Notes: generated from the sequence alone by a model not told the origin. A stretch of 64,000 bases of DNA from Escherichia coli (GCF_050920415.1 NZ_CP169309.1); one strand, 5' to 3'; counted from the stretch's first letter, positions 54,346 to 60,891 are shown. Translations and numbers: made by a program.

Positions 54346-55464
54346 ATGACTGGAGATAACACCCTCATCCATTCTCACGGCATTAACCGTCGTGATTTCA
54401 TGAAGCTTTGTGCAGCATTAGCCGCCACCATGGGGTTAAGTAGCAAAGCCGCTGCAGAGATGGCCGAATCGGTTACTAACCCGCAGCGTCCGCCAGTTAT
54501 CTGGATTGGCGCGCAGGAGTGCACCGGTTGTACGGAATCTCTGCTTCGTGCAACGCATCCAACGGTAGAAAACCTCGTGCTGGAGACTATCTCTCTGGAG
54601 TATCACGAAGTGCTTTCCGCCGCCTTCGGTCATCAGGTCGAAGAGAACAAACATAACGCTCTCGAGAAGTACAAAGGGCAGTATGTGTTAGTGGTGGATG
54701 GCTCCATCCCATTAAAAGATAATGGTATTTATTGCATGGTTGCCGGTGAGCCGATTGTGGATCACATCCGCAAAGCGGCGGAAGGCGCAGCAGCCATTAT
54801 CGCTATCGGTTCCTGCTCTGCGTGGGGCGGTGTTGCCGCAGCTGGAGTTAACCCAACTGGCGCAGTCAGCCTGCAAGAAGTTCTACCGGGCAAAACCGTT
54901 ATCAACATTCCAGGTTGCCCGCCGAACCCGCACAACTTCCTCGCGACCGTTGCGCACATCATCACTTACGGCAAACCGCCGAAACTGGATGACAAAAACC
55001 GTCCGACTTTCGCCTATGGCCGTCTGATTCACGAACACTGCGAACGCCGCCCGCACTTCGATGCTGGTCGTTTTGCCAAAGAGTTCGGTGATGAAGGCCA
55101 CCGCGAAGGCTGGTGCCTGTACCACCTCGGCTGTAAAGGGCCAGAAACTTACGGCAACTGCTCAACGCTGCAATTCTGCGATGTTGGTGGTGTGTGGCCG
55201 GTGGCGATTGGTCACCCGTGCTATGGCTGTAACGAAGAAGGTATCGGCTTCCATAAAGGCATCCATCAGCTTGCCAACGTCGAAAACCAGACTCCGCGTT
55301 CGCAGAAACCGGATGTTAACGCTAAAGAGGGCGGCAACGTCTCTGCGGGCGCTATCGGTTTGCTCGGCGGTGTGGTTGGGCTGGTTGCCGGTGTCAGCGT
55401 GATGGCGGTGCGTGAACTGGGTCGTCAGCAAAAGAAAGATAACGCTGACTCACGGGGAGAATAA
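54346..55464 (+). CDS. hybO: Hydrogenase 2 small subunit
   Basis: 372-aa ORF with twin-arginine signal ([16 protein letters not shown]), FeS cysteine clusters, C-terminal TM anchor. Confidence 0.95.
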
Positions 55465-55466
55465 CC

Positions 55467-56453
55467 GTGAACAGACGTAATTTTATTAAAGCAGCCTCCT
55501 GCGGCGCATTGCTGACGGGCGCGTTGCCGTCTGTCAGTCATGCGGCTGCTGAAAACCGCCCGCCAATTCCGGGATCGCTGGGGATGTTGTACGACTCGAC
55601 GCTGTGCGTAGGCTGCCAGGCTTGCGTCACTAAGTGTCAGGATATCAACTTCCCTGAACGTAACCCACAAGGGGAACAGACCTGGTCGAATAACGACAAA
55701 CTGTCGCCGTACACCAATAACATTATCCAGGTGTGGACCAGCGGCACGGGAGTCAACAAAGACCAGGAAGAGAACGGCTATGCGTACATTAAGAAACAGT
55801 GTATGCACTGCGTCGATCCGAACTGTGTCTCAGTGTGCCCGGTTTCTGCGCTGAAAAAAGATCCGAAAACCGGCATTGTCCATTACGACAAAGATGTGTG
55901 CACCGGCTGCCGTTACTGCATGGTTGCCTGTCCGTACAACGTGCCGAAGTACGACTACAACAACCCGTTTGGTGCGCTGCATAAGTGTGAGCTTTGCAAC
56001 CAGAAAGGTGTGGAACGTCTTGATAAAGGCGGTCTGCCTGGCTGCGTAGAAGTGTGCCCGGCGGGCGCGGTGATTTTTGGTACGCGTGAAGAGCTGATGG
56101 CGGAGGCGAAAAAACGTCTGGCGCTGAAGCCTGGCAGCGAATACCACTATCCACGTCAGACGCTGAAATCTGGCGACACTTACCTGCACACAGTGCCGAA
56201 ATATTATCCGCATCTGTACGGCGAGAAAGAGGGCGGTGGTACTCAGGTTCTGGTACTGACGGGTGTGCCTTATGAAAATCTCGACCTGCCGAAACTGGAC
56301 GATCTTTCTACTGGTGCGCGTTCCGAACATGTTCAACACACCCTGTATAAAGGCATGATGCTACCACTGGCTGTGCTGGCGGGCTTAACCGTGCTGGTTC
56401 GTCGCAACACCAAAAACGACCATCACGACGGAGGAGACGATCATGAGTCATGA
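55467..56453 (+). CDS. hybA: Hydrogenase 2 ferredoxin-type 4Fe-4S subunit
   Basis: 328-aa ORF, GTG start, Tat-like signal, multiple CxxCxxCxxxCP motifs. Confidence 0.9.
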
Positions 56454-57621
56454 TCCACAACCGCTGGGCGGCAAAATCATCAGTAAACCGGTCATGATTT
56501 TTGGACCGTTAATCGTCATCTGTATGCTCCTGATTGTGAAGCGTCTGGTGTTCGGTCTGGGCTCTGTCTCTGACCTGAACGGCGGCTTCCCGTGGGGCGT
56601 GTGGATCGCGTTTGACCTGCTGATCGGCACCGGCTTTGCCTGTGGCGGCTGGGCGCTGGCGTGGGCGGTATACGTCTTTAATCGTGGGCAATACCATCCG
56701 CTGGTGCGTCCGGCACTGTTGGCAAGTCTGTTTGGTTACTCACTGGGTGGCTTGTCGATCACTATCGACGTGGGTCGCTACTGGAACCTGCCGTACTTCT
56801 ACATTCCGGGTCACTTCAACGTGAACTCGGTACTGTTCGAGACGGCGGTCTGTATGACCATCTACATCGGCGTGATGGCACTGGAGTTTGCTCCGGCACT
56901 GTTTGAACGTCTGGGCTGGAAAGTGTCGCTCAAGCGTCTGAACAAGGTGATGTTCTTCATCATCGCGCTCGGCGCGCTGCTGCCAACTATGCACCAGTCT
57001 TCAATGGGGTCGCTGATGATCTCGGCGGGCTACAAGGTGCATCCGCTGTGGCAAAGCTATGAAATGTTGCCGCTGTTCTCGCTGTTGACGGCGTTCATCA
57101 TGGGCTTCTCGATTGTCATCTTTGAAGGTTCGCTGGTGCAGGCGGGTCTGCGTGGCAACGGTCCGGATGAAAAGAGCCTGTTCGTCAAACTGACTAACAC
57201 CATCAGTGTGTTGCTGGCGATTTTCATCGTGTTGCGCTTTGGCGAGCTGATCTATCGCGACAAGCTGTCGTTAGCGTTTGCCGGTGACTTCTACTCCGTG
57301 ATGTTCTGGATTGAAGTCCTGCTGATGCTCTTCCCGCTGGTTGTTCTGCGTGTGGCGAAGCTGCGTAATGATTCCCGCATGCTGTTCCTGTCAGCACTGA
57401 GCGCACTGTTAGGTTGTGCAACCTGGCGTCTGACCTATTCGCTGGTGGCATTCAACCCGGGCGGTGGTTACGCCTACTTCCCGACCTGGGAAGAACTGTT
57501 GATTTCTATTGGTTTTGTGGCTATTGAGATTTGCGCTTACATCGTACTCATTCGTCTACTGCCGATACTTCCTCCTTTAAAACAAAACGATCATAATCGT
57601 CATGAGGCGAGCAAAGCATGA
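56443..57621 (+). CDS. hybB: Hydrogenase 2 integral membrane cytochrome-b-type subunit
   Basis: 392-aa polytopic ORF overlapping hybA end by 11 nt. Confidence 0.9.
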
Positions 57622-59815: not shown

Positions 59816-60296
59816 AGAGATAGCAGGTTTTCAGACCTCCCCGAAGGCGCAAGTACAGGCAGCGTTTGAAGAAATTGCCCGGCGTTCGATGCACGATCTC
59901 TCTTTTCTGCATCCTTCAATGCCGGTGTATGTTTCTGACTTTACGCTGTTCGAAGGTCAGTGGACGGGGTGTGTGATCACCCCGTGGATGCTGAGTGCAG
60001 TTATCTTCCCCGGCCCGGATCAACTCTGGCCGCTGCGCAAAGTGAGTGAAAAAATCGGTCTGCAACTGCCGTATGGCACCATGACCTTTACCGTTGGCGA
60101 ACTGGACGGTGTTTCGCAATATCTCTCCTGCTCGCTGATGTCGCCGCTTTCGCACAGCATGTCGATTGAAGAGGGCCAACGGCTGACGGATGACTGCGCG
60201 CGGATGATCCTTTCGCTGCCGGTCACCAATCCGGATGTACCACACGCAGGGCGTCGTGCCCTGCTATTTGGCCGCAGGAGTGGCGAAAATGCATGA
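59808..60296 (+). CDS. hybE: Hydrogenase 2-specific chaperone
   Basis: 162 aa from MNEEIAGFQTSPKAQ; overlaps hybD end. Confidence 0.8.
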   Translation: MNEEIAGFQTSPKAQVQAAFEEIARRSMHDLSFLHPSMPVYVSDFTLFEGQWTGCVITPWMLSAVIFPGPDQLWPLRKVSEKIGLQLPYGTMTFTVGELDGVSQYLSCSLMSPLSHSMSIEEGQRLTDDCARMILSLPVTNPDVPHAGRRALLFGRRSGENA

Positions 60297-60630
60297 GTTG
60301 TCGCTTTGCCAAAGCGCCGTTGAAATTATCCAACGGCAGGCGGAGCAGCATGATGTTAAGCGCGTCACCGCCGTGTGGCTGGAAATTGGCGCGCTATCCT
60401 GCGTTGAGGAGAGCGCCGTCCGTTTTAGTTTTGAAATTGTCTGCCACGGAACGGTGGCGCAAGGGTGCGATTTACATATCGTCTATAAACCCGCCCAGGC
60501 CTGGTGCTGGGATTGTAGCCAGGTAGTGGAGATTCATCAGCACGATGCGCAATGCCCGCTCTGTCACGGTGAGCGGTTGCGCGTCGATACCGGCGATTCG
60601 CTAATCGTCAAAAGTATTGAAGTTGAATAA
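60289..60630 (+). CDS. hybF: Hydrogenase nickel incorporation protein (HypA-like)
   Basis: 113 aa from MHELSLCQSAVEII; zinc-finger CxxC...CxxC. Confidence 0.85.
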   Translation: MHELSLCQSAVEIIQRQAEQHDVKRVTAVWLEIGALSCVEESAVRFSFEIVCHGTVAQGCDLHIVYKPAQAWCWDCSQVVEIHQHDAQCPLCHGERLRVDTGDSLIVKSIEVE

Positions 60631-60642
60631 CCGGAGTTAACA

Positions 60643-60891
60643 ATGTGTATTGGCGTTCCAGGCCAGGTGCTGGCTGTCGGTGAAGATATTCACCAGCTTG
60701 CGCAGGTTGAAGTATGTGGTATCAAGCGCGACGTGAATATCGCCCTGATTTGTGAAGGTAATCCTGCCGATCTGCTGGGCCAGTGGGTACTGGTACACGT
60801 CGGATTTGCCATGAGCATCATCGACGAAGATGAAGCCAAAGCCACATTAGACGCACTGCGCCAAATGGATTACGACATTACCAGCGCGTGA
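60643..60891 (+). CDS. hybG: Hydrogenase maturation chaperone (HypC-like)
   Basis: 82-aa ORF starting MCIGVPGQV. Confidence 0.85.

Follow-up and report, generated by a model that had tools for sequence, protein, structure and literature searches.

Positions 54346–60891 (+ strand) of a 64,000-nucleotide stretch of Escherichia coli DNA (GCF_050920415.1, NZ_CP169309.1; the whole stretch is referred to as the window) hold what we read, with a probability of about 0.93, as the canonical E. coli hybOABCDEFG operon for hydrogenase 2, the longer open reading frames (ORFs) listed for hybD, hybE and hybF being chance open frames. The operon, its assembly dependent on twin-arginine translocation (Tat) and its gene boundaries belong to the textbook knowledge of E. 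coli and are already known. The locus nevertheless carries a lesson for annotation, namely that tracks built from the longest ORFs over-extend genes overlapping their upstream neighbor, and it offers a clean system for measuring how stop–start overlaps set the subunit ratios of a multi-subunit membrane enzyme.

A mechanical listing of ORFs in 52500–62500, in which each frame opens at the first start codon after a stop, gave eight codirectional + strand frames at 54346–60891. All eight are intact and each has a single terminal stop. A megablast search against complete E. coli genomes found 54000–61500 to be 100% identical to NZ_CP169399.1, and 5416 of the 5426 genomes have a place covering at least 80% of this query. 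The hyb coordinates agree with the RefSeq annotation of NZ_CP169399.1 and the genes are collinear with those of the curated K-12 MG1655, where the nucleotide identity per gene is 96.3–98.4%; HybO, HybF and HybG are identical to their K-12 counterparts and the other five proteins differ by 1–3 residues each. In both annotations the operon is flanked by yghW upstream and by the convergent yghU downstream. The name given to hybF by the NCBI Prokaryotic Genome Annotation Pipeline (PGAP) is hypA. The genes and the processed tail of the large subunit are as follows:

54346–55464, + strand: hybO, small subunit, 372 aa (NF007779 equivalog, 1–372 of 372)
55467–56453, + strand: hybA, periplasmic four-cluster Fe-S protein, 328 aa, GTG start (NF008134 equivalog)
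56443–57621, + strand: hybB, quinone-reactive subunit of the NrfD type, integral to the membrane, 392 aa (PF03916 NrfD, NF008133)
57618–59321, + strand: hybC, [NiFe] large subunit, 567 aa (PF00374; NF007778 equivalog, 1–567 of 567)
59274–59318, + strand: 15-residue C-terminal propeptide of HybC, the tail after His552
59321–59815, + strand: hybD, hydrogenase-2 maturation endopeptidase, 164 aa (NF007777, 1–163 of 164)
59808–60296, + strand: hybE, hydrogenase-2 assembly chaperone, 162 aa (NF007776 equivalog, 1–162 of 162)
60289–60630, + strand: hybF, HypA-type nickel metallochaperone, 113 aa (PF01155, 1–112 of 112; NF009046, 1–113 of 113)
60643–60891, + strand: hybG, HypC-type maturation chaperone, 82 aa (NF007721 equivalog)

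Each protein matches the expected Pfam family, and all eight score above the cut-off of their own NCBIfam equivalog or subfamily model over essentially their full length. The scores of the structural proteins are 834.7 bits for HybO (NF007779, cut-off 659), 597 for HybA (NF008134, 263), 625 for HybB (NF008133, 450) and 1273 for HybC (NF007778, 969). The genes hybA and hybB sit between those of the small and large subunits; HybA is matched by Pfam Fer4_11, and HybB is the membrane subunit. The metal-binding motifs of HybC are RICGVCTTTH (residue 59), of the N-terminal RxCGxCxxxH type, and DPCMACAVH (residues 544–552), of the C-terminal DPCxxCxxH type. Large chains in the PDB exist in forms of 567 and 552 residues which, together with the 15-residue tail after His552, fits C-terminal processing of the protein. 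This peptide is removed by HybD once the metal center is in place, and HybD contains E16, D62 and H93, which we take to be its metal ligands (1CFZ structure). The maturation genes hybD, hybE, hybF and hybG come after the structural genes, and NF007777, NF007776, NF009046 and NF007721 are all matched above their cut-offs. HybE is the assembly chaperone of hydrogenase 2, and the HypA-type HybF and the HypC-type HybG serve the insertion of nickel and Fe(CN)2CO. A first-pass annotation made from the sequence alone had named the locus hydrogenase 2 and placed eight genes in this interval. The equivalog matches and the collinearity with K-12 support the identification, and the gene set holds with all frames intact and coordinates matching the curated annotation. 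The oxidation and evolution of H2 linked to the quinone pool are known for the near-identical K-12 enzyme (PMC5902676).

Gene junctions and translational coupling

In the proposed account, one promoter region upstream of hybO would drive a single mRNA that ends at a pair of repetitive extragenic palindromic (REP) sequences after hybG. A TAA immediately precedes the hybO ATG, and the eight genes meet at seven junctions:

hybO/hybA: 2-nt gap, TAAccGTG
hybA/hybB: 11-nt overlap
hybB/hybC: 4-nt overlap, ATGA
hybC/hybD: 1-nt overlap, TAATG, the hybD ATG sharing one base with the hybC TAA
hybD/hybE: 8-nt overlap
hybE/hybF: 8-nt overlap
hybF/hybG: 12-nt gap

The first-pass annotation had the junction sequences right, including the TAATG, while its range of 4–11 nt for the overlaps was loose, the one between hybC and hybD being a single nucleotide. 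Its GTG start for hybA is read directly from the sequence and is unambiguous because the frame is closed by a stop seven codons upstream and the interval contains no second start. The genes are packed more closely than in the rest of the window: each of the seven hyb junctions measures at most 12 nt, in comparison with 5 of the 31 other same-strand neighboring pairs (Fisher P = 6e-5); this comparison uses the annotation of NZ_CP169399.1, which is collinear with the window save for one IS2 insertion without a counterpart there. Motifs resembling the Shine–Dalgarno (SD) sequence are found 5–12 nt upstream of the seven internal starts (GGGGAG, GGAGGAG, GAGG, GAAGG, GGGAGG, AGGAG and GGAG). Six of these lie within the upstream gene, and the motif of hybG lies in the 12-nt gap between hybF and hybG.

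We retrieved six hyb loci of other genera via HybE homologues, giving a comparison of seven taxa: E. coli, Salmonella, Citrobacter, Kosakonia, Providencia, one Budviciaceae genome and Aeromonas. The GTG start of hybA, the 2-nt gap before it, the ATGA of hybB/hybC and the 1-nt overlap of hybC/hybD are invariant in all seven, and the 8-nt hybE/hybF overlap is present in every taxon having hybF after hybE; the hybA/hybB overlap varies from −8 to −17. All taxa keep purine-rich SD-like motifs 6–10 nt ahead of each internal start. Several of the junction geometries and the GTG start of hybA have thus been conserved over long evolutionary distances, as far as Aeromonas.

With the internal starts overlapping the preceding stop or lying within 12 nt of it, each with an SD-like motif near, ribosomes ending one gene would be well placed to unfold and start the next, and the outputs of subunits and maturases would be tied together. 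We consider it a reasonable inference from the anatomy and its conservation that translational coupling is the most likely reading, and a balanced subunit output is a plausible benefit: the rhomboid protease GlpG recognizes and cleaves orphan HybA if HybB is lacking or HybA is present in excess (PMC7232013). The energies computed for opening the start regions are 3.8 kcal/mol for hybO, 5.0 for hybG, 6.7 for hybC and 6.7–11.7 for hybA to hybF, random coding positions having 10.4 ± 3.5 kcal/mol. They would fit an accessible first start and internal starts needing help, but are suggestive only, as the spread is wide and hybG and hybC are fairly open.

A number of results weigh against this account of the operon. 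Consensus scans showed no excess over chance, with 2 promoter-like hits against 6.1 expected and 11 terminator-like hits against 8.7, and we therefore take the assumed boundaries of the transcript from published work and from the arrangement of the genes. No measurement of coupling in the hyb operon was found in the literature searched. The hybD/hybE junction varies among the taxa (−8, −11, +2 and −19), so the exact overlap lengths are not all constrained, and the SD-like motif that each internal start has of its own makes independent initiation possible.

These last two observations, the variable spacing including a 2-nt gap in Budviciaceae, would equally be expected if the tight spacing reflected genome compaction or stop/start drift in a long-lived operon, with ribosomes initiating independently at the SD site of each gene and output ratios not governed by upstream translation. 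Short overlaps are moreover common in E. coli operons, and the window itself contains qseC/qseB at −4 and cpdA/yqiA at −1. We nevertheless find this explanation unlikely, though deserving of serious consideration: four junction geometries are shared unchanged by taxa in which the third positions of hybC are just 41–66% identical, the hybO/hybA junction is conserved beyond the level of synonymous sites, and the internal start regions, unlike that of hybO, are no more accessible than random coding sequence, none of the three comparisons being a direct test.

The conservation of the hybO/hybA junction extends beyond its spacing. The 30 nt before the hybA GTG (in the region 55437–55469) are 100% identical in Salmonella and Citrobacter, where the third positions of hybC are 66% identical, and 83–87% identical in Kosakonia, Providencia and Budviciaceae, where the whole of hybC is 71–78% identical. 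An approximately 20-nt block at the junction, ctcacggggagaaTAAccGTG, is identical in E. coli, Salmonella and Citrobacter, nearly identical in Providencia, Budviciaceae and Kosakonia, and recognizable in Aeromonas. The invariant GTG, the 2-nt gap and this block could together form a conserved device for setting the ratio of the two proteins, a proposal that we regard as rather doubtful. If it were true, ribosomes that terminate and then re-initiate at a weak start codon would hold HybA output at a set fraction of HybO output, and the ratio setting would limit the orphan HybA otherwise cleared by GlpG.

Upstream extensions of the hybD, hybE and hybF frames

The mechanical frames of three genes start upstream of the curated methionine, inside the preceding gene:

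59252–59320, + strand: hybD ORF extension, 23 codons with a GTG start, overlying the codons of the C-terminal motif and propeptide of hybC
59733–59807, + strand: hybE ORF extension, 25 codons with a TTG start
60235–60288, + strand: hybF ORF extension, 18 codons with an ATG start

The first-pass annotation had held that these frames need trimming and had pointed to alignment with curated proteins as the check. Trimming is upheld by solved structures, by profile models, by a stop codon in K-12 and by stop codons in other genera, and on these four independent lines of evidence we conclude that the extensions are not coding in these frames.

In the alignments, the extended ORFs match only from the curated Met onward. 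Extended HybD aligns to the E. coli HybD chains 1cfz and 2kml only from query residue 24 and extended HybE to the E. coli HybE chain 2kc5 only from query residue 26, each being the curated Met; the HypA chains of T. kodakarensis (3a43) and H. pylori (6g81) place their own residue 1, the start of MHE, at residue 19 of extended HybF. Position 1 of the NCBIfam and Pfam profiles similarly falls on the curated Met for all three proteins. The E. coli constructs in the PDB follow the annotation and are thus not independent of it, a point against this reading; the HypA chains from other species and the stop codons of the comparison do not depend on the E. coli annotation. Among the HybE homologues, the complete ones measure 158–163 aa and match the extended query over just its curated 87%.

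Inside the hybD extension, K-12 carries an in-frame TGA, and its curated ATG is preceded by no upstream start. The 187-aa hybD ORF is present in the strain studied here because a synonymous GCC codon in hybC (GCT in K-12) removes the TGA; a single synonymous hybC polymorphism thus suffices to create or remove the ORF. More generally, the longer ORFs arise only from frames that by chance are not closed within the preceding gene in this strain. In a comparison of the window with K-12, 3 of the 18 codons of the hybF extension differ nonsynonymously while the overlapping HybE has no amino-acid change there, and 3 of the 25 codons of the hybE extension do so.

In Kosakonia, Providencia, Budviciaceae and Aeromonas, in-frame stops are found 4–25 codons upstream of the called starts of hybD, hybE and hybF, and these four taxa have no alternative upstream start save for a GTG one codon before the called hybD ATG in Aeromonas, which is not an extension of this kind. 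Within the hybD frame, the stops lie 4–10 codons upstream in the same four taxa and in C. koseri (4 codons). For hybE, no upstream in-frame start is seen in any of the four, and in Kosakonia, Providencia and Budviciaceae the hybF frame is closed by stops 4–7 codons upstream and offers no other start. We considered the upstream ATG of hybF, shared by E. coli, Salmonella and Citrobacter at a distance of −18 or −19 codons, as a start codon and rejected it on the basis of the stops in these three distant genera; its recurrence is explained by the conserved HybE residues Asp-Val read in the other frame.

The functional motifs agree with the shorter frames. HybF begins with MHE and has CxxC pairs at residues 73 and 89, and HybG begins with MCIGVPG, its gene closing with the tandem stop TGATGA. 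In HypA-type proteins the N-terminal Met-His-Glu forms the nickel site, and HypC-type proteins cannot do without their Cys2; both points argue for the short start of HybF and for the start of HybG; an extension of HybF would destroy the nickel site of the family. From the alignments and the comparative stops, the N-termini of HybD, HybE and HybF are placed at the curated Met. That the longer ORFs are real genes, giving HybD, HybE and HybF N-terminal extensions of 23, 25 and 18 residues, is extremely improbable on this evidence, in spite of the open frames of this strain, an upstream hybF ATG shared by K-12, Salmonella and Citrobacter, and one metagenomic gene call (P0001, 244 aa) that reproduces the over-extension of hybE.

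Two further observations concern gene calls. Among the HybE homologues, P0003, P0066, P0087 and P0109 (240–273 aa) show HybE fused to HypA-type or HycI-type domains; such fusions probably stem from frameshifts or sequencing errors at the 8-nt overlaps of the genes and do not represent genuine fusion proteins. Upstream of the operon, the mechanical ORF of yghX (52819–53751, GTG start) is also longer than the annotated gene (52864–53751), which is an intact 295-aa hydrolase in NZ_CP169399.1 and a pseudogene in K-12 MG1655.

Export signals, flanking elements and strain background

Signals for export and membrane anchoring are found in two of the proteins:

54346–54456, + strand: Tat signal peptide of hybO, codons 1–37, the mature protein starting from Glu38
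55348–55410, + strand: C-terminal membrane tail anchor of hybO, residues ~335–355, the strongest hydropathy window
55467–55550, + strand: Tat signal of hybA, residues ~1–28 (TIGR01409 at residues 2–26)
residues ~293–311 of HybA: C-terminal tail anchor, the hydropathy maximum

HybO has NRRDFMK at residues 14–20, followed by a hydrophobic stretch and AAA at 35–37, and matches the Tat-signal model TIGR01409 at residues 13–37 with 24.5–30.1 bits (cut-off 16.7). HybA has NRRNFIK at residues 2–8 and AAA at 26–28 and scores 23.8 bits with the same model. Both follow the Tat pattern, an S/T-R-R-x-F-L-K-like motif succeeded by a hydrophobic stretch and a predicted AxA cleavage site near the N-terminus. 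A motif check of all eight proteins found the twin-arginine motif in none of the other six, HybC included. The claim of a Tat-dependent small subunit was therefore correct for HybO and incomplete, as HybA, like HybO, carries a predicted Tat signal, with its export via Tat taken from the literature. The solved small chains of hydrogenase 2 begin at Glu38, and a signal-less HybO construct has been given as "starting at codon 38, Glu" (PMC5902676); both HybO and HybA are described as Tat substrates with C-terminal tail anchors (PMC5902676, PMC10924467). The two proteins would thus be made with twin-arginine signal peptides and tail anchors and be exported folded by the Tat system, and the signal-less HybC would be expected to leave the cytoplasm in complex with HybO.

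Two elements flank the genes:

54249–54265: palindrome CCATAATAAATGTGTGG, starting 97 nt upstream of hybO, candidate operator
60907–60983, both strands: inverted REP pair (bacterial interspersed mosaic element, BIME), Rfam RF02564 naRNA4, scoring 87.1 bits (− strand) and 55 bits (+ strand)

The REP pair begins sixteen nucleotides downstream of the hybG stop, in the interval that separates hybG from the convergent yghU, and marks the 3' boundary of the operon. Its presence in the 7.5-kb query explains why each E. coli genome gave a median of 14 matching places. An Rfam scan of 53000–62500 with a permissive threshold gave only naRNA4, and no riboswitch, leader or small RNA in or around the operon. 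The palindrome CCATAATAAATGTGTGG lies equally far from hybO in Salmonella and Citrobacter, where its outer CCATA...GTGTGG is kept and its spacer varies. It resembles the type-2 site of IscR, a site not confirmed in the literature searched, and may be an IscR type-2-like operator, a candidate put forward from its sequence. The motif is not enriched within the window, with 4 occurrences found and 2.7 expected. IscR represses hyb aerobically (PMC5902676).

The operon lies in an uncommon genetic background. For each of the segments 32000–39000, 54000–61500 and 59200–60700, only one or two of the 5426 complete E. coli genomes show at least 99% identity, and nearly all others are 95–99% identical. 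We considered a recombinant allele specific to hyb and rejected it, as the control segment 32000–39000 shows the same low-identity pattern; the strain as a whole is therefore from a lineage that has seldom been sequenced, and the divergence extends beyond hyb. The control query itself includes a variable segment at 36850–39250, between ftsP and ygiQ, with two genes annotated as 'membrane protein' and 'hypothetical protein' or, in other strains, 'ankyrin repeat domain-containing protein'; 13 of the 5426 genomes cover at least 80% of the 32000–39000 query. Elsewhere, NZ_CP169399.1 has a 1336-bp IS2 beside a truncated fimbrial gene ('pilus assembly protein'; window ~10000–12500, corresponding to 11104–12332 of its segment). 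The window lacks that insertion and therefore represents another, related strain, whose fimbrial gene may be intact.

Relation to known hydrogenase operons

The closest known system is hybOABCDEFG of K-12 (b2997–b2990), which has the same gene order, gene lengths, seven junction geometries and start codons, including the GTG of hybA. It differs in having GCT at the hybC codon that is GCC in the window, which closes the frame of the hybD extension with a TGA.

Hydrogenase 1 (hyaABCDEF) is likewise a membrane-bound periplasmic [NiFe] hydrogenase with homologous small and large subunits, the solved chains of its large subunit aligning to residue 552 of HybC, and has a maturation protease of the HyaD/HybD family. 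The window proteins, however, score far below the cut-offs of the hydrogenase-1 equivalogs, with 507.7 against 1101 for the large subunit and 96.6 against 261 for the protease. Unlike hydrogenase 1, the hyb operon also has the Fe-S protein HybA and the NrfD-type HybB, which replace the b-type cytochrome of hydrogenase 1.

The hyb-type operons of other Enterobacterales and of Aeromonas share the hybOABCDE core in the same order and differ in what follows it: in Providencia and Budviciaceae the operon runs into hypBCDE-like genes in place of hybG, and Aeromonas is without hybF and hybG at the hyb position.

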